A DNA stretch of 64,000 nucleotides, taken from positions 1,036,690 through 1,100,689 of the forward strand of contig CAWCRS010000003.1 in NCBI GenBank assembly GCA_963798085.1, read 5' to 3'. Origin of the DNA: an uncultured Gemmatimonadales bacterium. GTDB taxonomy: Bacteria; Gemmatimonadota; Gemmatimonadetes; Longimicrobiales; RSA9. A model generated the notes under the pieces. The model did not search any database and had not been told where the DNA came from. It saw only the letters and a list, made by a program, of their open reading frames with translations. Positions within the stretch are counted from its first letter, which is position 1. Every line of letters starts with the position of its first letter. Made by a program: the position numbers and the translations under genes. Positions 53,747-64,000 of the stretch are shown piece after piece.

Positions 53747-54541
53747 TCATGAGAGATCTCTATTCCAGGCAAGGCGCGAGAAGAACCTGTCAATCTCCTG
53801 TGCAGTGCGGTCCGGCTCCTCGCGGTCGGCGAAGCCACCCTCCAGATTGCCGGGCCTCAGGAAGTTGTCGACATAGGCTTCGAGCACAGCGTCGTGCGCC
53901 TCTTTGCAATGCGCCCAGTGGCGCAGGAAATGGCCAATGAAGGCGCGACAACTCTCACGCGTCGCCCCCACGAGCGCCGGCGCCATCTCCGTCTGATTGA
54001 AGGACTGGTACCAGATCTCGGCCAGCCGATCGGGCGCACCCATGCGCGGCCCGATACCCGGATGGACGAAATCGAGAAAGAACAGGCCGACGAGCAGGTC
54101 CGGTACCTTGCGCGCCAGCCGCAGCATCGCGGCACCACCCACATCGTGCCCAACGATGCCGACGCGCTCGGCGCCGAGCGCTCGGAGGATCTCTATCACA
54201 TCGTCGGCATGGGCATCCGGTCCGAAAGGACCCCCGGGCTTCTCGCTCTCGCCAAAGCCGCGGAGATCGGGTGCGACGAGGGTGTAGCGATGGGCGAGCC
54301 GTTCCATCACCAGTTCCCAGGCCAGCCAGAACTCGGGCCATCCGTGCAGCAGGAGCAGCATCGGCCCGGTCCCGGTGCGCGCCACATGAAACGACGCGCC
54401 GTTCGCTTCGATGCTCAGAATGCTCAATCGCAGATCTCCGCTTGACCATCTCGGGCACACTCCTAATGTAAAGTCGAACTCAACGGCGGAGCCCGCGTCG
54501 GGCACGGATAGCCACGGTGCGATCGTCGTTTCGACGCTCAC
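53747..54541 (-). pseudogene. alpha/beta hydrolase (epoxide-hydrolase-like) with foreign VOC-like N-terminus and shortened C-terminus
   Basis: LLLHGWPE, APDLRGFGES, VGHDVGG; begins MSVETTIAPWLSVPDAGSAVEF; catalytic-His region apparently missing after GNLEGGF. Confidence 0.65.
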
Positions 54542-55077
54542 CAGCCGCTGCGCTCACGGAGCCTGCGAATGTGCGCCACATGATGCCTGCCATGCCACGC
54601 GCAGATCTCGACCAGCTCATCGACCGGGATCACGCCCCACAGGGGATGCTGCATGCAACGGCCGAATTGCTCGGACGTGAGCCGTGCCAGCAGATGGACA
54701 AATCGCGCGTGCAGCGCTTCGAGGATCGAGAGCGACGCGTCGATCGCCATTGTCAGCGCGTCCGGCAGCTCACCCCAGGTGACTTCGTCCCACAACTTCA
54801 CCGGTGGATTGCCTTCCGTGAGCGCGATTCGCGTTCGCACGTAGAGCACAATGTGCGCATCCGCGACATGATGCACCACCTGGCGCACGGTCCAGCCACC
54901 GGGGCGATACTGCGTGTCGAGCTGCGCATCGTCCAGCCCGGCCACGGCCTGCCGAACACTCGCCGGCAGCACCGCGATGTCGTCGATCGCCGCGTTGCGC
55001 GACGCGGTCGTATACCCGGTGCTCTGCTCGCGCCGCCCGATTGGATAGCGAAGCACCTCGAGCTCGGCGTCCGTCAT
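54538..55077 (-). CDS. YfiT/DinB family thiol S-transferase
   Basis: LRYPIG, YRPGGWTVRQVVHHVADAH, AWHGRHHVAHI. Confidence 0.9.
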   Translation of the reverse strand: MTDAELEVLRYPIGRREQSTGYTTASRNAAIDDIAVLPASVRQAVAGLDDAQLDTQYRPGGWTVRQVVHHVADAHIVLYVRTRIALTEGNPPVKLWDEVTWGELPDALTMAIDASLSILEALHARFVHLLARLTSEQFGRCMQHPLWGVIPVDELVEICAWHGRHHVAHIRRLRERSGW

Positions 55078-55178
55078 GGGATCGCCCTCATCACCCGGCC
55101 ATGGAGTGGCTGAACGCTTCGTTAACGATCGGCAATGTACGTCTTGCGTGCAGTGCACGCTTTGGGTACTGTCAAACA

Positions 55179-55880
55179 ATGGATGTCGATCGCTCCCCTG
55201 GGACAAACGTGGTGGAGATCGCGGCGGCGATCGGCACCGCGACGCGGGCGCGCATGCTCTACGGCCTGATCGATGGTCGCCCGCGCACGAGCACCGAGCT
55301 CGCGCTGATGGCCGACGTCACGCCATCGACGGCCAGCATTCATTTGCAGCTTCTGAAGGCGCGGCGGCTGGTGAGCGTGAGCGCGCACGGAAGGCAGCGC
55401 TACTATGCGTTGGCGGATGCCAATGTCGCGGCCGCGCTCGAGACGCTGAGCGTGCTGGCCGACCGATCACCCGTCAACACGTCGGCCGTGTCGAGCCCGT
55501 TGCGCAGCGCGCGAACCTGTTACGATCACATCGCGGGGGTCCTCGGCGTCACGCTGTACGATCGCTTCGTCGCGCTGGGCTGGTTCGCCGCCAGTGGCTC
55601 AAAGCGCCGGGGGGATGGCGATCTGACGACGAGCGGAGAGAAAGCGATGGCCGCATTGGGAATCGACGTCGAAGATCTGCGCGCCTGTCGCCGCCGGTTC
55701 GCGTACGGCTGTCTCGATTGGAGTGAGCGGCGGCCGCATCTCGGCGGAGCGCTCGGTGCGGCCCTGCTGGACTGTGCGCTGCGGCGGAAATGGGTCGTTC
55801 GCGAACGTCGCAGCCGTGGCCTGATCGTCACTGCGCACGGGCGTCGCGAAATGTTCGCGCGTTTTGGCGCGCAGGTCTGA
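55179..55880 (+). CDS. ArsR-family transcriptional regulator
   Basis: RARML..TELA..STASIHL HTH; ARTCYDHIAG and CLDWSERRPHLGG motifs. Confidence 0.9.
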   Translation: MDVDRSPGTNVVEIAAAIGTATRARMLYGLIDGRPRTSTELALMADVTPSTASIHLQLLKARRLVSVSAHGRQRYYALADANVAAALETLSVLADRSPVNTSAVSSPLRSARTCYDHIAGVLGVTLYDRFVALGWFAASGSKRRGDGDLTTSGEKAMAALGIDVEDLRACRRRFAYGCLDWSERRPHLGGALGAALLDCALRRKWVVRERRSRGLIVTAHGRREMFARFGAQV

Positions 55881-55936
55881 GGGGCAGCGCTCTCCCCCGT
55901 GGAGAGTCAGTGTCCACGAAACCGGGTCGACTCCAC

Positions 55937-57636
55937 CTACGACGTGGTCATGTGTCTCCGGCGGAAGGCATCCATCAGCCGCACTAACTCGGCGTTGGTG
56001 AACGGTTGCCAGCCGTGCGGCTTCATGGGGCGGCCGTACTCGAACGTGAAGTTCGCCGGTGGGTTGGTGAGCTTTTTCGACTCCTGCTCCATCAGGTAGA
56101 CGCCGAGGTTCAGGTAGTAGTTATCCATGTCGCCGACATAGACGTGCATCTTGCCGGCCAGCTGCGATCCAATGCGCGGCCAGTTCTGGCGCAGGTTCCA
56201 CGTGAGATCGTAACCGCGGTCCCGCCAGTACGCGGCGACGCTCTTGTCGATTACGCCGGTGGACCGGTCCCATAGACGCTTCGGGTATCCGTCGGCGCCC
56301 GCCGGTCCATAGGCGGCGTCCCACGCATCGAACTGCTGGCCGCTGCGCGCATGGTCCCCGAGCACCGCTTCCAATCGGCTCATCATGCGGAAGGACAGAA
56401 GATCCTGACCCTCCGGCGTCCGGCTCATGGATCGCTCCGGCACCGGTGGCAACGCGTTGTTAGGGAAGAACGCGTTCGAGTCCGCGTAAATGTCGACGGT
56501 CTGGTTGCGCCGGAAGTCGACCGGATCGGGATAGAGACACCACGCACCGCCGAAAAAGTCCGGGCGCTGAATCTGCAGCGCGGCGCACTCCCAGCCGCCG
56601 GTGGAGCCGCCGGTGAGGAACCGCGCGTTCGCCTCGGGGATGGAATGAAATCGCCGCTCGAGCTCGGGCACGAGCTCGGTGAGGAGCGCGTCCTGGTACG
56701 GTCCGTTGTTCGCCGAGTTCACGGCGTACGAGTCATCGTAGTAGGGCGTGGGGTGTTGCCAGCTGATGGCGACGAAGCGTGGGAAGGCGTTGCTCGTCCA
56801 CGCTTCAGCGAACTCCAACCCGCTCTCGCGCGCGCTCGAGAGAGCAGGGTCCCACACGCTGGGCTGGCCACCGCGGCCGGCCCCGCGTCCCGCGCGGCCC
56901 GCGCGAGCCGCGCCCGAATCAGCCGGGTCGACGAAGCCGAACGGCGCGCCCAGCCCGAAGTGGCCCTGGCTGTAAATGGCCGGGTAACGCTCGTTCGACG
57001 ATTCGGCGAACCCCCTGGGCAGGAGCACGGTGGCCCCAATGTACACCGGCGCGCCCCAGAACTTCGACAGGAGCTCGCTCTTCATCTTCACGCGCTTGAC
57101 CCAACGCGTGTCGGGCGGAACCTCTACCGGAGGCAGCTTCTTCGTCAGCGCGAGCCGCACCGCCGTGCGCGAGTTCGGCTCGAAATGGACCTTGACCACT
57201 TCGCTCACGAGGTTCCCCGGCGACGTGCTCCAATGTTGTCCTTCCCACTGATCCGCGTGCACCCACACCGCGTGACCATCCGCACGGTGGAACTGTGTGT
57301 AGACGTTGAGCACGGCCTGCGCGTAGTAGTCGCCCGCAGGCATGTGGGCCATGTCGTCGAACGGGAATCCGGGCACCTGCGCGCCGACGGTGGTCTCGGC
57401 CCCGGGTTTCCACCCGCCGACATCGATCCCATAGAAGGGAACGCTGCCGCCGTAACTGCCGGCCTGAAAGCGCGGTTCGCGCGCGTTCGTCCGTCCGAAA
57501 TGACGAAGAGCCGGCCGGTCGTGGGCTCACTGGCGATGGACCGATCCAGCGTGACCGTCACCTGCTGTGCGACGGCTGGCGTCCTCGCGAGCGCGACCGC
57601 CACGATCGCGGCGACAGCTATGCGGAATGGGCGCAT
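55937..57636 (-). CDS. secreted esterase, paralog of 35153-36781, frameshift near 57495
   Basis: MRPFRIAVAA signal, TGRLFV, then TNAREPRFQAG..PFYGIDV in frame with DQWEGQ, QHPTPYYDDSYAVNS, GGSTGGWE. Confidence 0.85.
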
Positions 57637-57690
57637 GGTGCGCTCCTGCCAGGGAAACAGTAGGGGTGATAGCGTGGGCCGCATCCAGGA

Positions 57691-58948
57691 TGCGGCGCCG
57701 AGCGGCCCGGGGCAAGCTCACCGGTCGCGAAGCAAGGATTGCGACCTGGCTGCAATCCAGACTACCCGGACGATCCCAACTATTACGCGATCTGCAACCA
57801 AGGTTGCGACCCAGATCCCTTTGACGTGTGTGTTGCGCCGACCTTCATTATCCCCGCCGAGGGGTATACCTGTACCGATAGCGTGTACGGCTGTGAGCTG
57901 TAAGTCGGTTGTCTGGTGCGCAGGAGGAGCAGGGCACGCGCGTTGCCCTGCTCCTTACTTGGACGAAGCGGCCTTGGACCCGCGGGTACGGGTTCCTGCA
58001 GGTTGTCGGGAGGCGCGGATGGTGTCCTGGTTTGGCCGGATAGTGGTGACGCTGGTGATGTCATGCATCGCACAGGCGTGGTGGTCGTCGTCTGCCTTCG
58101 CGCAGGAGATCCGTGGACGTGTCGTTGAAGAGGTGTCGCGGATGGCCATTTCGCGTGCAGCTGTCGTTCTGATGTCTGTCGACAGCGTGGTGTTGATGAG
58201 AACAGAAACCGATAGCAGGGGCTTCTTTCGTCTCCATGCGGAAGGCGCCGGGAGATATCTCTTGCACGCAGAGCACTCGGGCCACAGCTCCCAAGTCAGA
58301 GAGGTCACCGTCCTTGAACATGGCGTAATTACCTTGCCTGCGTTTGTACTGCAGGTCAATCTGATTGCTCTGCCGCCGGTCAATGTGCGAGCGAGCACCG
58401 GTGGGGCTCCGGGTGCAAGTAGTTTCGGAAATGATAAGCATGTGCTTGACGGCGGCCGCATGGCGCTGCTGGAGGCTCACGGAGCGTCGATCTTCTCAGC
58501 TATTCGCGAACTTGGCGGCGGAGTGATAGTCAAGAGCGAACGGCAGCACTCGGCCTGCATTGAATCGGATCGGCGCTTTTTGGATTTCCAGCAGAAGCCC
58601 GGTTGCATGATGGTTATAGTAGTTCTCAATGGTGTCGTCATAGGCGATGGTGGCAGCTTGGTAGGATCAATGCGTCTCGAAGACCTGGAGAGTGTTGAGT
58701 ATCTGTCGCCGCTTGACGCAGGCCAACGGTACGGCTTGGATGCTGCGGCGAGGGGCGCAATAGTGCTTTGGACGCGTGGAAATGGACCCCATAGGTCTGC
58801 GAGCCGGAATGGCCGGGATAGGGATTAGCAGGTTGCGGGAAACGGGTAACCAAGCTGAGAATCTCTCTCCGTATGAGCGGCGTTATTGGTGGATGGCTTG
58901 CTTTGCGGCGCCGAGCGGCCCGCGGCAAGCTCACCGGCCGCGAAGCAA
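57691..58948. repeat. 45-bp direct repeats at 57691-57735 and 58904-58948
   Basis: TGCGGCGCCGAGCGGCCCG(G/C)GGCAAGCTCACCGG(T/C)CGCGAAGCAA, 43/45 identical. Confidence 0.9.
58019..58828 (+). CDS. secreted carboxypeptidase-regulatory-like domain plus TonB-plug-like protein (no barrel)
   Basis: GGAGG RBS, signal peptide, QEIRGRVVE..TDSRGFFRL..GRYLL; LESVEYL..YG..RGAIVLWTR. Confidence 0.7.
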   Translation: MVSWFGRIVVTLVMSCIAQAWWSSSAFAQEIRGRVVEEVSRMAISRAAVVLMSVDSVVLMRTETDSRGFFRLHAEGAGRYLLHAEHSGHSSQVREVTVLEHGVITLPAFVLQVNLIALPPVNVRASTGGAPGASSFGNDKHVLDGGRMALLEAHGASIFSAIRELGGGVIVKSERQHSACIESDRRFLDFQQKPGCMMVIVVLNGVVIGDGGSLVGSMRLEDLESVEYLSPLDAGQRYGLDAAARGAIVLWTRGNGPHRSASRNGRDRD

Positions 58949-58999
58949 CGTGCGCACGGTCGAGGCGAGGTTGCAGGGATCGGGTTCGATGGCGCGTTC

Positions 59000-59080
59000 G
59001 CCACGCTCCGTTTGTGCCTGCCTCCGCCATTGCGCGGCCGACGGCCGACAGGCCGCCGAGCGTGTAATGGCGTGTTAGAT
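59000..59080 (-). repeat. partial attC-like site
   Basis: ...GCCATTGCGCGGCC..GGCCGCCGAGCGTGTAATGGCGTGTTAGAT matches the right-hand portion of the complete sites; other arm not recognisable. Confidence 0.7.
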
Positions 59081-59145
59081 GACGTGCTCCGGCCTGCCTG
59101 GAACGTCACCGTGCCTGCCCGGAGTCCGGATCTGCCGGCCGCCTG

Positions 59146-60579
59146 CTAGAACTTGCTTGCGGACTCCTGCGGCCTGGCATCAACAACCACGATATCAGGC
59201 GCTTGCTCACCTCGCTCCACTGCCTCGTCCCGAAGCGTCAAGACGGCCTTGATCTTGGTGTCGTCGTCTGTAACACGAATGATCAGGAAGACGCTTGCCA
59301 GTGTTCGCTCTGCCTCGTTGTAGCGCTTTAGTTGAGTCTCATATCCGTGGACAAGGCGGCTGTGGTTCGATTTCTTCAGTTCCACCGTAACCTTGGCTGC
59401 AGATCCGTGGCTAAACTTAAAGTCGACCGGTCCAGGGCCGGCGTTTGTCTCGGGCGATATGTCCAGATCTGGGCTGCCTTCACGGCAGTATGTGAGGGCG
59501 ATTCCAAAGAATATTCGCTGGATCGCTCGCTCCGTGATAGATGTGCGCTCCCTCTTGTCAATCCACAGAGCGTCCCACAAGCCATTGCGCTCAACAAGAC
59601 GCTTGAAATGGTCACATATTTCCTTTACGGCGTCCAAGGCTGACGCGGATGTCCACCCCTGGACGGGCTTGTGAATGGTCAGCGGGTGCTTTGCGGCCAG
59701 GTCCTGCGCGCTCAAGAAGCGGCGCAATTCAGCCGCTGGATCCAGGTAGAAGTCATATGGGTCTGCGTGGGCATCGCGATAGACTTGCAGTAGAGCCTTC
59801 ATTAGGTCGGGGTTGTGACGAACGCGATCCCACAATTGCGCCTTTGATGGCCGCCGGCCCTTGGCGACTGTGGCAAAGAGCTCGTTGATCTTTGATCTCA
59901 CCGAAGCGTTGTACTGCGCCACAGCGGCGATCTCAGAGTAGCTCAATGCAAGCGGCAACTCGCGAAGAACATCTCTGGGGACGAAATAGATATGGCGCAT
60001 CTTGCCCTTGTAACGATCGACCGGAAGCTGGTACGGGGACCCGCGAATGGTCACCGGTTTCGTTGCCACGCCCAGGGTTGTTGCAACGCGCTCGGTGTAC
60101 TTGGCGAATGGTCCCTCCGCGATTCGAAGAACCACATCGCTGATCCGATCTGGGCCGTAGTCGTCGGTGAACAAGCCGACGAGTTCGAATATTCGAGGAT
60201 CTCTTTCGCCGGCTTTGATAATTCTGAATGCGCGGTCGGCAAGGTTTCTGGCCAAGCCGGCTCCTACCGCGGACCCGTCGCCGCTGTCCTTGGAGTAGCC
60301 GAGCGAAACGCCGCGCAGTTCCTTGAACTGAAGACGTTTTCTTGCCTCGTCCCAGAGTGGCCCCTCAGGTTTATCCGACAGGGAGAGAAGTGTAACAAGA
60401 TCTTCGAAGTGGGCGGTGACTGCAGTTGCAGCCTCGTGCATTTCTGGGACGCTACTGACCGCGAGCAGATGGGGATCGACGTGGAGCTGTGAATCCAGAT
60501 CAATGAAGGCGTTGAATACACCATGTCCGTCAAGTGCATCGGGCGGCACTCCGAGAAAGCTACTTAGCAGATCAGGCAT
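59146..60579 (-). CDS. cassette A: hypothetical protein with C-terminal PD-(D/E)xK nuclease-like motif
   Basis: 477 aa intact ORF; ERAIQRIF..DISPETNAGPGPVDFKFS..VTVELKKS..HGYETQL..Y. Confidence 0.75.
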   Translation of the reverse strand: MPDLLSSFLGVPPDALDGHGVFNAFIDLDSQLHVDPHLLAVSSVPEMHEAATAVTAHFEDLVTLLSLSDKPEGPLWDEARKRLQFKELRGVSLGYSKDSGDGSAVGAGLARNLADRAFRIIKAGERDPRIFELVGLFTDDYGPDRISDVVLRIAEGPFAKYTERVATTLGVATKPVTIRGSPYQLPVDRYKGKMRHIYFVPRDVLRELPLALSYSEIAAVAQYNASVRSKINELFATVAKGRRPSKAQLWDRVRHNPDLMKALLQVYRDAHADPYDFYLDPAAELRRFLSAQDLAAKHPLTIHKPVQGWTSASALDAVKEICDHFKRLVERNGLWDALWIDKRERTSITERAIQRIFFGIALTYCREGSPDLDISPETNAGPGPVDFKFSHGSAAKVTVELKKSNHSRLVHGYETQLKRYNEAERTLASVFLIIRVTDDDTKIKAVLTLRDEAVERGEQAPDIVVVDARPQESASKF

Positions 60580-60737
60580 GCCAGATTCGCTTGGATGAAG
60601 TCATTTGGTTCTTCTTCGCGACTGTCCGTGCGTGTAGACGACGGTCTGAACTGAATCCTGCTGGTTTGCGCGCGAGGCTGCAAGGTCAGCTTCGTTGAGC
60701 GATTTCGGCTCGGAATACGATAGGGCCGGAGCATGTC

Positions 60738-60877
60738 ATCTAACGTGATGGCGGTTCATGACGCGCCGAAGCCGCTTGCGGCGCAGGCGTGTCCGCGCCC
60801 TTCCCAAGCTACTCGCCTCGGCCATTGCGCGGCCAGCCGCGCGCACGCGCGGCGCAGCATGAACTAGCGTGTTAGCT
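60738..60877 (-). repeat. attC-like site (140 bp)
   Basis: ATCTAAC..GTTCATG-AC-GCGCCG ... CGGCGC-AG-CATGAAC..GTTAGCT. Confidence 0.85.
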
Positions 60878-60981
60878 GACGTTCGAACACCTGGTTGCGT
60901 TGCCGCTCTGCTCGGGACGTCCATTCTGGCTGCATGGTCACGTACCGGCTGCGATCATTCGGACGGGCGTGCCGCACTCGT

Positions 60982-61518
60982 CTACTCCGTCGGCGCATCG
61001 TCCGCTGGAGGAGGAGCACCGGAATCGTCCGCCTGCCGTTCCACCGCATACTTGACGTCCTGCACTTCCGCAAAACCCGGATCGAACACAGCACTCAATT
61101 GAAGCGTGTGGTAGGTGGCCGCTCCGCGACTCAAACCCACCCGGCGGTAATTCATCAAGCCTCGCGACTCCAGATGCAGAAACACCTGGTCGGCGGCCAG
61201 CAAGATGGCGAGTATCACGATTGCCTTCATTGGCGAGTACATCCAGCTGAGCAAGCGAGCCACGGCCACGAGCACGAGGGTGAATAACGCCAAGCGCCAA
61301 GCCCTAGCTCTGCCATACTGCGACAGGACTGCCTCCTGAAGGTGAAGTCGGCCACCCTGGTCTTCTGCGATGATGCCCTTGCTCAAGAGGCGCTGCAAGG
61401 CCGGCAACGTACGATCCACAGCAATGCTGGCACCGGCCTCCGGGGCATACCCTTGGCGAAGTTCCCGGAGAAGGGTGCGCTCCCCCCGCGACAAGAACCA
61501 ACAAGCCACGTTGCTCAT
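60982..61518 (-). CDS. cassette B: hypothetical membrane protein
   Basis: GGAGAG RBS before MSNVACWFL; two hydrophobic helices; lies between attC sites. Confidence 0.6.
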   Translation of the reverse strand: MSNVACWFLSRGERTLLRELRQGYAPEAGASIAVDRTLPALQRLLSKGIIAEDQGGRLHLQEAVLSQYGRARAWRLALFTLVLVAVARLLSWMYSPMKAIVILAILLAADQVFLHLESRGLMNYRRVGLSRGAATYHTLQLSAVFDPGFAEVQDVKYAVERQADDSGAPPPADDAPTE

Positions 61519-61698
61519 CGCTCTCTCCAAGCCGGCCCGTTCGACCCCCGGCGCGCGACAATCGATCCACGCCCACCGCCATCTACTCCCGTAAGGGACG
61601 TCCGGTCCTTCCCGACCCGATGCTCCTACCACGCCAGCTGCTCATGGAATACGCGCCCAGGCTTAACGAACGGCACGCCACAATGGTGTTCGAATGTC

Positions 61699-61844
61699 AG
61701 CTAACGTCTCAGAGGTTGCCGACGTGCCGAAGCCGACCGCAAGGGCGGCGCAGGCATGTCCGCCGCCCTTCCCTGCGTGACCGCTTCGGCTGCCCGCGGC
61801 GGCCGCCGCGCGCCAGCGCGGCCTGCGGCAAACTTGTGTTATCT
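61699..61844 (-). repeat. attC-like site (146 bp)
   Basis: AGCTAAC..GTTGCCG ... CGGCAAAC..GTTATCT; central region similar to the other sites. Confidence 0.85.
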
Positions 61845-61868
61845 GACGTGCGCCTGCCTGGGCTAAGC

Positions 61869-62841
61869 CTATGCTGTCGGAATCGCCGAGAGAACTCGGT
61901 TGAGGTCCTTAAGCCTGAGCTTCAAGGCATCGTCCACGGGTCCTGCCGTGACAACGTAAGCCGTGCGCAAGGTGGACGTTACGGGGCGACCACCCTTCAG
62001 CACTGCACACATCACGTGGGCATAAAAGACAATTGCGGGTGCCGCCTTCGTCGAATCCAGAATCGTTCGACAAGCGGCTCCGAACCGCCGACGTGGCTGA
62101 CGACAGCACCCCGCAGGGAGTCAATCTCCTCAAGTAAGAGGCGCAGCGGTATTGCGGGATCACCAAAGGCTCCCCATGTGTAGCCGCCGGCCTTATCCCT
62201 TTCACCAGGCCAATAACGTGTGCGGTCAATAATATTCTTAAGGTTGAGAAAGACGAATCCCTGATCGCAATCGCCCCTGTCGATTTGGTGAATGCCATCT
62301 GACACGCGGTCGATCATTGTCTGAGGACTCCTGGAGTGGAGTACCTTGCATGCGATACCCAGGCGGCCGTCCGGCAGGCTGGCAATGACGTCGGGATTGC
62401 TGCCGATTCGAATAATGCGGATCGTCCAGGCGTACGTCCTGGGTCCACTGCATCGCGTAGCATGCTGGCATAGAGCTCGAAGATCTTGTTCGCATCTTGA
62501 TCAGTAATCTTTGCGGGACGATTCTGGCTCGCTTCGGCCTTGTTAAGAAGCTGCAAATGTGGGACTAGTCGCGGGAAGCTCTTGTTCTGTGACGCCCCAA
62601 GCAACTGGGCTGCGAGCTCCGCGAGGGCGGCCATATCGCTGTACTCAGGCCGGATGTCGTGGTTGCACGGGATGGGCACTCCCTCCCGGGCGCGTTCAGT
62701 GATCTCCTTCGTGCTGGTGACCATCCGTTCGAGCGAACTGCCCTCGACAATGGAAATGCCAACGCCATCCAATGCGGCAATGAGTTCGTCGGCCGCCCGC
62801 TCTTCAGCGGCCGCCAGCGTAAACCCTCGCATGTTCACCAT
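61869..62841 (-). CDS. cassette C: hypothetical protein with PD-(D/E)xK-like motif, about 3 frameshifts
   Basis: Frames join as MVNMRGF..DANKIFELY / ..LDDP.. / NPDVIASLPDGRLGIACKVLHS..QIDRG..FVFLNL / ..IVFYAHV..SAIPTA*. Confidence 0.6.
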
Positions 62842-62852
62842 TGGCGCATGTC

Positions 62853-62999
62853 AGATAACGTCTCAGAAGTTCACGACGTGCCGGAGCCGACCGCATGGGC
62901 GGCGCAGGCCGTTCCACCAGCCCTTCCGTGCGTGACCGCTTCGGCCACTCGCGGCGGCCAGCGGCCACCAGGCCGCTGAGCGTGAAATTTGTGTTATAC
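62853..62999 (-). repeat. attC-like site (147 bp)
   Basis: AGATAAC..GTTCACG ... CGTGAAAT..GTTATAC; highly similar to 61699-61844. Confidence 0.85.
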
Positions 63000-63046
63000 G
63001 AAGTGTTCTTCGGCGCCTCGGTTCAGGCACTGTGCCGGATGGCCCT

Positions 63047-63888
63047 TCAAGTGATCGGCCCCAGCGGCCCATCTTGCGCAACTGATGCCCACGTTGTGAA
63101 GTAAGCCTGATCGGTCGCGATCAAGTTGACGCCAAGACGGCATGCCTTGGCCCACGACACGTCATCGTTGACCTCATATGCCCGAAAGAGTAGCGCGGGC
63201 CTGAATTCAGGCTCCACGAGAAGCTTTGTGGCGACCAAGCGATCATAACGGAAATTGTAGAACAACCGATTCGGCTGGTCGAGGGGGAACGTTGAGCCCG
63301 TCTCGATTGTTTCGTTGACGTTCCTGTCGACGAAGCACAGCCTCTCATTCAGAGAACAGTCGACGTATGTCCAAGTGCGATCAAGCTCACCGCCTGACAT
63401 GCAACAAATGAAGCGCCCCCATATCGCGCGTGCGGTTGGCCAGCCGGAGCTCGCGGCGTCCAACAAGGTCGCCGCGCTTCCAAGCAGTTCCCCAGGCGTG
63501 TAGAACATCGAGCCGGACATGGCGTCTCTAATGTAGGCGTCAAACGCCGTGGCGAATTCTCGGTCCGAGCCGGGTGAGTTCTTGATATCGAAATGCACGA
63601 AAATGGGTCAATGCCCCCCCCTTGCTCGGCGGACCAACGATCAAGTTCGGGTGGATCTGCGCTCAATTGCCCTTTCGTGCTCTTCGAATACTTGCCTCCA
63701 TGCTGAACAGACCAGCTCCAACCCTTCACATCCTGGACAATGTCAAGCTCGACGCCGCAGCTGCCACCCTTGTATGGACGGTCAGCGTGCCAGGTGAGCT
63801 GATCGGCGATCGGCAGCTTGGCCACACCGTAGCTATTGTGTACGGCCTTGACACGGATTTGCTGCATCGGAAGGTCTACTGTATCCAT
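63047..63888 (-). CDS. cassette D: PI-PLC/GDPD-like phosphodiesterase, frameshifted near 63610-63650
   Basis: KAVHNSY, GVELDI, SVQH in the first frame; FDIK and GVNLIATD in the second. Confidence 0.7.
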
Positions 63889-63954
63889 AATGCCCTCCCA
63901 CTCGAACGAGGACGACTTGTGCTGCCTGCCTCATATCTGCCGAAGAACATTTTC

Positions 63955-64000
63955 GTATAACGTGCGTTTGTTCACGAAGCCCCGGAGCTGACCGCCAGGT
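63955..64000 (-). repeat. attC-like site cut by the window edge
   Basis: GTATAAC-GTGCGTTT-GTTCACG..CCGGAGCTGACCGC matches the beginning of the 62853 site. Confidence 0.75.

Follow-up and report, generated by a model that had tools for sequence, protein, structure and literature searches.

What recombines the gene cassettes at the right-hand end of this stretch? The window, by which we mean the whole 64,000 nucleotides analysed, is the final 64 kb of contig C3 of its source genome (G000; 6.2 Mb in 12 contigs, 90% complete; C1, C2, C3, C10 and C12 are contigs of this genome), and the last window base is the last base of C3. Judged from sequence, the window holds the distal four cassettes of a large sedentary cassette array, read from right to left. 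An earlier note had read them as part of a classical integron whose intI lay to the right of position 64000. We consider it likely that the array is instead an integron-like system run by a tyrosine recombinase that lacks I2, the insertion found in integron integrases (IntI), and equally that the window cassettes are the oldest (distal) part of this chromosomal system. Throughout, the window minus strand is taken as the top strand of the sites, which are:

58943..59080, minus strand: site 0, the terminal att site, full-length but decayed (covariance model (CM) E 8.7e-10, model positions 1-144)
60738..60877, minus strand: site 1, 140 bp (R'' AGCTAAC, 6 nt, GTTCATG ... CATGAAC, 9 nt, R' GTTAGAT)
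61699..61844, minus strand: site 2, 146 bp (AGATAAC, 5 nt, TTTGCCG ... CGGCAAC, 9 nt, GTTAGCT)
62853..62999, minus strand: site 3, 147 bp (GTATAAC, 5 nt, TTTCACG ... CGTGAAC, 9 nt, GTTATCT)
63955..64000, minus strand: site 4, R' end only (CGTGAAC, 8 nt, GTTATAC), truncated by the contig end

The three complete sites lie exactly where the earlier note had put them, as does the start of the cut-off site at 63955, inside which the end of C3 cuts the family. The site ending at 59080 had been called partial; there is indeed a site there, and it is a full-length copy in which the R'' half is intact, the R' box and inner arm are mutated, and the array ends. The intI expected beyond 64000 could not be upheld: the contig stops at that base, no contig end overlaps it, and a comparison of contig ends found no overlap or shared end sequence linking C3 to C1, C2 or C12.

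We built a hidden Markov model on the three complete window sites and iterated it over the genome, recovering 62 copies at E ≤ 1e-6. At E ≤ 1e-5 the genome-wide search gave 64 matches, far above chance, in agreement with the earlier description of a homogeneous family of long sites; C2 carries 44 at its end, C12 has 5 at its start and C1 has 5 at its end, C3 has 9 (4 internal and 5 in the window), and a single one is on C10. A pattern parse resolved 49 of the 64 completely; most of the other 15, of which 9 are in distal C2, are decayed or truncated. On the top strand the layout is YAAC, 5-7 nt, a 7-bp arm, a centre of 93-119 nt, the complementary arm, 7-11 nt and GTTR, with a site length of 135-163 bp. 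Among the complete sites, the left spacer is 6 nt in 37 and the right spacer 9 nt in 37, and the right spacer ends in AC in all 49; the outer arm letters are imposed by the parsing pattern, the AC is not. The inner 7-bp stem has no bulge at the position characteristic of IntI sites (the 9th base after AAC); an invariant unpaired base follows the stem in 49/49 sites and could be a different mark. The sites are attC-like in their AAC...GTT boxes and inner inverted repeat, as had been noted, and depart from classical attC in the missing bulge, the variable spacers and a branched centre. A canonical-pattern scan gave no match in four arrays of this family (hereafter window-type arrays) and 9 in the array behind the genome's IntI. 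A plasmid search with site 3 returned nothing but two short chance matches, and an Rfam scan of 56000-64000 matched no family.

The borders of the mobile unit can be read from duplicated cassettes. The segment C12:2947-1754 equals C2:444047-442854 (99.7%), and C2:425181-423987 equals C2:403512-402320 (99.0%); both duplicated gene cassettes carry the downstream site, and in both the following cassette diverges within two bases of GTT. These exact G|TT borders fix the crossover position and establish the minus strand as the top strand. In addition, R' is complementary to the cassette's own R'' at 6 or more of 7 bases in 42 of 44 intervals. From these sequence comparisons we infer that cassettes move as units with crossover at G|TT. 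The claim that this is the distal end of a sedentary array is borne out by the duplicated cassettes, which keep the left (downstream) site and break at G|TT, and by the decay of the terminal window site, which resembles that of distal sites on C2. Guanine-cytosine (GC) content drops across the array to 0.57-0.63 from ~0.66, the cargo being lower in GC, and a promoter scan of the window found 1 promoter-like site where 2.2 were expected.

The ends of the cassettes show a further feature, which we call private inverted ends. Two examples in the window are:

59074..59094, no strand assigned: private inverted end of cassette 1, pairing with 60724-60744 (95%, mismatch at base 11)
60871-60908 / 61668-61705: private inverted ends of cassette 2, from the inverted-repeat search

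In a sample of 40 cassettes under 3 kb, each end matches its own partner at 15.4 of 20 bases, against 8.0 across 1560 cross pairs. Base 11 never matches: it is A at 48/49 cassette starts and G at 48/49 partners, which on the bottom strand is a G-T wobble. Such extended ends are absent from 14 cassettes of the IntI array (1.9 matches with the own end against 2.5 across, bases 12-21). That the sites are an artefact of assembly, or else intergenic repeats that do not move (REP- or terminator-like RNA structures), is scarcely credible. The GC-rich palindromes and the fragmented assembly with its apparent frameshifts are what such a reading would draw on; the R'/R'' complementarity, the exact duplicated cassettes, the private inverted ends and the lower cargo GC all speak against it.

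A candidate enzyme stands at the head of one of these arrays:

G000:C12:7882-~9111, minus strand: I2-less tyrosine recombinase, with a HARP-like N-terminal domain at the family level

The window site family begins ~350 bp behind this co-oriented gene, and the first G|TT there is not preceded by an att site, an arrangement that is similar in relatives; no conserved attI motif or promoter was established behind the C12 gene or behind the relatives' recombinases. The protein is without positions 180-234 of TIGR02249 (218.6 bits, cut-off 265), has 20 residues at the stretch where VchIntIA (2a3v) has 62, and has a K-to-HxxRH spacing of 65 aa (amino acids) as against 106 aa. The catalytic R, K, H, R, H and Y are present in an open frame and are invariant or nearly so across 51 alignment rows, suggesting that the enzyme is catalytically intact. 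It falls under the cut-offs of the XerC, XerD and XerA profiles. In a tree of 42 rows, from which seven intended rows are absent, the I2-less proteins group with IntI and apart from two XerC/D rows (100/99); with these two Xer rows the tree does not separate IntI as sister to the I2-less group from IntI nested within it. The nearest named homologues are labelled Gemmatimonadales and Gemmatimonas, which points to Gemmatimonadota as the lineage, and a plasmid search with the recombinase gave 53 records, often annotated 'site-specific tyrosine recombinase/integron integrase'.

An alignment-based structure model of the recombinase (predicted local distance difference test (pLDDT) 87), which replaced a discarded single-sequence model with pLDDT 49, finds its best fold matches in archaeal XerA (4a8e and 5hxy, Z 22.4 and 21.4), with IntI4 at Z 19.2. 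This whole-model fold search has little power for the N-terminal domain. For that domain, the family profile matches PDB 4o66 at E 0.0014, and 12 of 25 family members match Pfam HARP (PF07443, N-terminal ~60 residues) at E ≤ 1, the best at 1.1e-4; an Atlas search with the domain returned unnamed clusters only, all under 0.9. HARP prefers junctions of single- and double-stranded DNA. As a separate observation, gene-less cassettes of 353-378 bp (88-90% alike; C12:6790-7529 and C2:426324-426676) fill the first two positions behind the I2-less recombinase, and short gene-less-looking ones also head arrays in the relatives G032 and G009.

The pairing of enzyme and sites recurs in relatives. Among 72 genomes of the family, which as kin are non-independent, an I2-less protein (E ≤ 1e-50) is present in 28, IntI in 19 and both in 5; the tallies include the unpublished genomes G051, G056 and G057, and G054 is also unpublished. 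In 12 I2-less loci from 9 related genomes, chosen for contiguity, the 163.5 kb downstream yielded 71 att-like sites co-oriented with the recombinase gene, spread over 9 of the 12 loci; a further 2 are on the opposite strand, the 195.7 kb upstream have none, and none is of canonical type. The base-11 C/A mark is present in 69 of the 71. The 80 GTDB-wide homologue loci contain 43 downstream sites on the same strand (in 16 loci), 1 on the opposite strand and no upstream same-strand site, and 31 of 41 sites of this set (one locus shared with the family set omitted) carry the mark, including sites in Bacillota, Spirochaetia and Bacteroidota. An inner A/C mark was also tried as a discriminator and dropped, as canonical-family sites share it. 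Among the candidates scored, strong window-type matches (E < 1e-15) beyond the source genome occur only in G010, G011, G029 and G054, none of which has an above-cut-off IntI. G010 has at least 43 window-type sites, and in G054 a recombinase fragment precedes the sites. These loci bear on the idea that the host's XerC/XerD integrate folded cassettes, as with CTXphi-type elements. XerC/D-like genes are present in the genome, and XerCD recombines folded single-stranded DNA without I2 according to PMC4792948 and PMC7790495. Nevertheless, in 9 of the 12 loci from relatives a dedicated recombinase immediately precedes the array, and the sites are unlike the 28-bp dif, and we regard host Xer integration as very improbable.

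To describe the structure that the enzyme would meet, we predicted the fold of the bottom strand from 45 aligned sites: an R stem is followed by an asymmetric loop and then by an inner stem without a bulge, and three hairpins complete a four-way junction. Of the 32 pairs, 14 vary on both sides and 94.8% of cells pair; no shuffle of 500 reaches the observed level, and slid registers pair at 27-46%, although these related sequences had themselves helped to define the structure, and the test therefore overstates the covariation. DNA folding energies make the bottom strand more stable in 41 of 49 sites, with z < -2 in 29 sites on the bottom strand and in 7 on the top. Folding window cassettes 2-4 in circular form gains 9-19 kcal/mol over the in-array form.

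These features also bear on whether the I2-less recombinase, while cognate, acts in an Xer- or Cre-like manner on double-stranded sites, with the arms as binding sites and the folding incidental. The closeness of its modelled structure to archaeal XerA, with Z scores above that of IntI4, would suit this, as would the 11-bp R arm, whose conservation at bases 1-4, 8 and 11 recalls the 11-mer Xer arm (PMC2731167). However, the inner arm is separated from the crossover by 7 to 11 nt of variable sequence, where dif, according to the same source, keeps 6 bp; compensatory changes run throughout the four-way junction; the wobble marks form pairs on a single strand, and a private end finds its partner only in its own cassette. 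We therefore judge a double-stranded mode of action quite unlikely, and recombination of folded strands by the I2-less enzyme remains the reading that we prefer.

The genome also holds a classical integron, which supplies the main rival. Its sole canonical IntI (C1:447431-448435, 410 bits) is followed by 15 sites of a separate family at C1 449-464 kb (array end 463961), so that the gene that the earlier note's classical reading required heads a different, canonical family. These sites are 92-124 bp long and form one long stem in which position 9 is invariably a bulged base, and their end complementarity ends at ~9-11 bases. CM cross-searches found no canonical-family match in the window-type arrays of this genome and 2 weak ones in one relative's locus, and no window-type match either in the IntI array or across 21 IntI loci from relatives. 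The canonical intI and its array (C1:448400-464000) share one orientation, and the array contains many near-identical duplicated cassettes, several of them toxin-antitoxin-like by reading.

On the rival account, the window belongs to a classical sedentary integron: the C1 IntI recombines window sites in trans, or heads one array that runs from C1 to C3, which leaves the I2-less gene as a bystander or a relic. The IntI is intact, the crossover is the canonical G|TT, and IntIs tolerate very diverse attC sites according to PMC8618304. Moreover, a window-type array begins at C1 ~475.2 kb, co-oriented with IntI and 27 kb downstream from it, with no adjoining recombinase, and runs off the end of C1; the window could be its continuation. 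Set against this, the two site families are unmixed in either array, the IntI array and the window-type array on C1 stand ~11 kb apart with ordinary genes between them, the arrays of G010 and G011 lie behind I2-less genes in genomes with no above-cut-off IntI, and the sites have variable spacers and no bulge at position 9. We consider the classical account unlikely, while taking it more seriously than any other alternative. A 250-bp leader (82% alike) precedes two recombinase-less window-family arrays (C1:474964-475212 and C3:700534-700777); the C1 leader ends at the first G|TT and has no match to the region behind the C12 recombinase.

Besides the position of the C1 array, several observations weigh against assigning the window to the I2-less enzyme. 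The window array has no physical link to either recombinase, the I2-less one on C12 or the IntI on C1. Of the three complete sites in the window, site 3 alone has its more stable fold on the bottom strand. The motif scanner used for the relatives also catches 9 of the 15 canonical-family sites, and its hits therefore show 'att-like' and not 'I2-less type'. The N-terminal domain of the G000 protein has no HARP match by itself. As regards the relatives, one G010 array (L139, G010:C31) points towards its recombinase homologue, and G029 has window-type sites with no I2-less match at E ≤ 1e-50 and a broken IntI-like piece. With 43-48 candidates per genome scored by the CMs, the window-type model matched 6 of 23 I2-less-only relatives and, weakly, 4 of 19 IntI-bearing ones; the canonical-type model matched 8 of the 23 I2-less-only relatives, and 17 of the 19 IntI genomes, from which 6 of its 19 training rows come. 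In the GTDB-wide set, 64 of 80 loci have no downstream site (36 have less than 2 kb of flank), and 12 upstream divergent sites lie on the opposite strand in 9 of the 80, mostly Bacteroidota. Finally, deletion of I2 abolishes the function of IntI1, as PMC7790495 describes it.

Even with these points in view, we favour the I2-less recombinase. The site anatomy, the G|TT crossover, the duplication of cassettes and the adjacency of the family to I2-less recombinases, here and in relatives, are observed; the mechanism that we propose from them is conditional. On excision, a circular cassette would bring its private inverted ends together, lengthening the R stem to ~20 bp. This stem would be bracketed by G-T wobbles at -1 and +11, which on the top strand are A-C mismatches, and the wobbles would bias folding to the bottom strand, replacing the bulged bases that I2 reads. 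The long stem would be complete only in the excised circle and would contribute there to the choice of strand. The I2-less enzyme would then cut folded bottom strands at G|TT; circles would enter at an attI-like G|TT a short way downstream of the recombinase gene and leave by site × site exchange, with junctions presumably resolved by replication. In the most speculative step, the HARP-like domain perhaps binds or anneals the junction of single- and double-stranded DNA. The window array may have been served in cis, as a continuation of the C12 array, or in trans.

A broader proposal follows, which we hold tentatively and to which we give a little less than even weight. It is that these systems are a widespread second class of integron, using folded single-stranded sites without I2, with two G-T wobbles and a private stem for the choice of strand, and a HARP-like domain at the single-/double-strand junction; such a class may descend from a pre-I2 ancestor of IntI, and in this genome it would coexist with a classical integron, with non-mixing cassette pools. 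I2 is held to enable integrases to act on folded attC sites; according to PMC4792948 it docks extrahelical bases, and how attC and I2 could have originated together is presented there and in PMC7790495 as a chicken-and-egg problem. With an intact I2-less enzyme at the head of cassette arrays, this question would become directly testable, and one genome with both systems provides matched enzymes and substrates, a natural orthogonality experiment if the second class is real. In that case, integron searches that require I2 would miss cassette platforms in Gemmatimonadota, Bacteroidota, Bacillota and Spirochaetota.

We compared the array with known systems. Sedentary chromosomal integrons, such as that of Vibrio cholerae (VchIntIA, 2a3v), are alike in their long arrays of mostly one-gene, lower-GC cassettes, AAC...GTT boxes, G|TT crossover, bottom-strand folding bias, distal decay and cargo of defence, restriction and toxin-antitoxin type, and in a recombinase with which ours groups in the tree, apart from the two XerC/D rows. 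Specifically, the cassettes here are bounded by RYYYAAC...GTTRRRY with their own R'/R'' complementarity, the crossover being inferred from sequence. The differences lie in the recombinase, which is without the ~41-aa IntI insertion, has an extra HARP-like N-terminal domain and is encoded co-oriented and upstream of the array; in the sites, which have neither an extrahelical L-box base at the IntI position nor a fixed 5-nt spacer (spacers are 5-7 and 7-11 nt) and have a branched centre; and in the ~20-bp private inverted ends with their fixed base-11 mismatch. The canonical integron of the same host (C1:447431-463961) shares the G|TT core, the co-orientation of the integrase and the duplicated cassettes, but differs in its 92-124-bp bulged single-stem sites and ~9-11-base end complementarity, and has no sites in common. 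XerA and XerCD, including the CTXphi-type systems, share an I2-less catalytic core (4a8e, 5hxy) and offer the precedent of folded strands without I2; here, a dedicated recombinase stands beside a cassette array, and the ~145-bp sites (135-163 bp) with 7-11-nt spacers differ from the 28-bp dif, with its two 11-mer arms and fixed 6-bp centre (PMC2731167).

The lineage was thought to be poorly described in this respect; Gemmatimonadota integrons are in fact already listed (PMC8618304, PMC9024848), and therefore the novelty lies not in the lineage alone but in the site design and the enzyme. In our literature search, which covered few subscription journals and no supplements, no description of I2-less cassette systems was found. 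The integrase test of IntegronFinder requires an IntI-specific domain (bioRxiv 10.1101/2022.02.06.479319; PMC9024848), and window-type arrays would therefore at best be called CALIN, that is, clusters of attC without an integron integrase, as the term is used in PMC9024848 and PMC8618304. Unlike a CALIN, the array need not be an orphan, since an intact candidate cognate recombinase is present.

The window cassettes themselves carry the following genes and coding regions:

59146..60579, minus strand: cassette 1 gene, 477 aa, DUF8370+DUF8371 family (cassette 58949-60743)
60982..61518, minus strand: cassette 2 gene, 178 aa from ATG, or 216 aa from an upstream GTG at 61632 (cassette 60744-61704)
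61909..62841, minus strand: cassette 3 coding region, split over several frames (cassette 61705-62858)
63047..63888, minus strand: cassette 4 coding region, overlapping open reading frames (ORFs) 63349-63888 and 63047-63598 (cassette 62859-63960)

One minus-strand gene between each pair of sites, as had been described, holds for cassettes 1 and 2; cassettes 3 and 4 have split, overlapping minus-strand ORFs. The cassette 1 protein has 92 homologues at E ≤ 0.001, with PF28130 and PF28123 together in 90 of them, and an Atlas match of 0.98; it weakly resembles the candidate defence protein PDC-M36A (PADLOC E 3.6e-7, residues 24-178 only), and a metagenome scan gave no confirmed match. Profile and family searches found no family for the 178-aa ORF of cassette 2. 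Near-identical pieces of this cassette are present in a soil metagenome run (X1); site-like contigs of this run that continue elsewhere near the R' box were left unused, the sites being repeats and uncovered parts proving nothing. Cassette 3 has a 175-aa ORF at 62314-62841 plus pieces downstream, and is probably a single frameshifted gene by its sequence; family, defence-profile and homologue searches returned no family or longer homologue, which is weak evidence. In cassette 4, the frame apparently shifts near a homopolymer run at ~63614-63621, the distal ORF weakly matches the PI-PLC-like Pfam PF16670 (E 3.9e-5, under the cut-off), and a search for longer homologues of the split ORFs gave none, which again is weak evidence. 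The frameshifts in cassettes 3 and 4 may be decay or sequencing error.

Elsewhere in the window-type arrays, the cargo comprises, among others, genes of restriction, CBASS-like genes, further defence-like genes and one gene of the aminoglycoside-kinase family (C12:137-1618, C1:477952-480538, C12:3103-5535 and C2:406260-407012). The kinds represented are CBASS-like genes for an E2 and for a phospholipase (this one split into two ORFs), a methyltransferase paired with a GmrSD-type nuclease, an APH(6)-family kinase and an SMC-like ATPase; at E ≤ 1e-5, PADLOC matched 5 of 35 scanned cargo ORFs. Insertion sequences interrupt several C2-array cassettes, and by a crude count the longest ATG-initiated ORF is antisense in 16 of 40 cassettes of the C2 arrays.

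Just past the array lies one more gene, within 57691..58948:

58019-58828, plus strand: CarboxypepD_reg-domain gene

It is flanked by 45-bp direct repeats (57691-57735 and 58904-58948, 96%) found nowhere else in the genome, and the 57691-58948 region is possibly a relic cassette or an insertion. The region abuts the decayed terminal site, and a similar-looking antisense gene is present in the C1 array (C1:482671-483483). Further left, at window positions 54263-55890, pieces of an ArsR regulator gene and an alpha/beta-hydrolase gene recur (87-91%) at C1:473985-474555, just before the C1 array, and have the same orientation relative to the cassettes beside both arrays.

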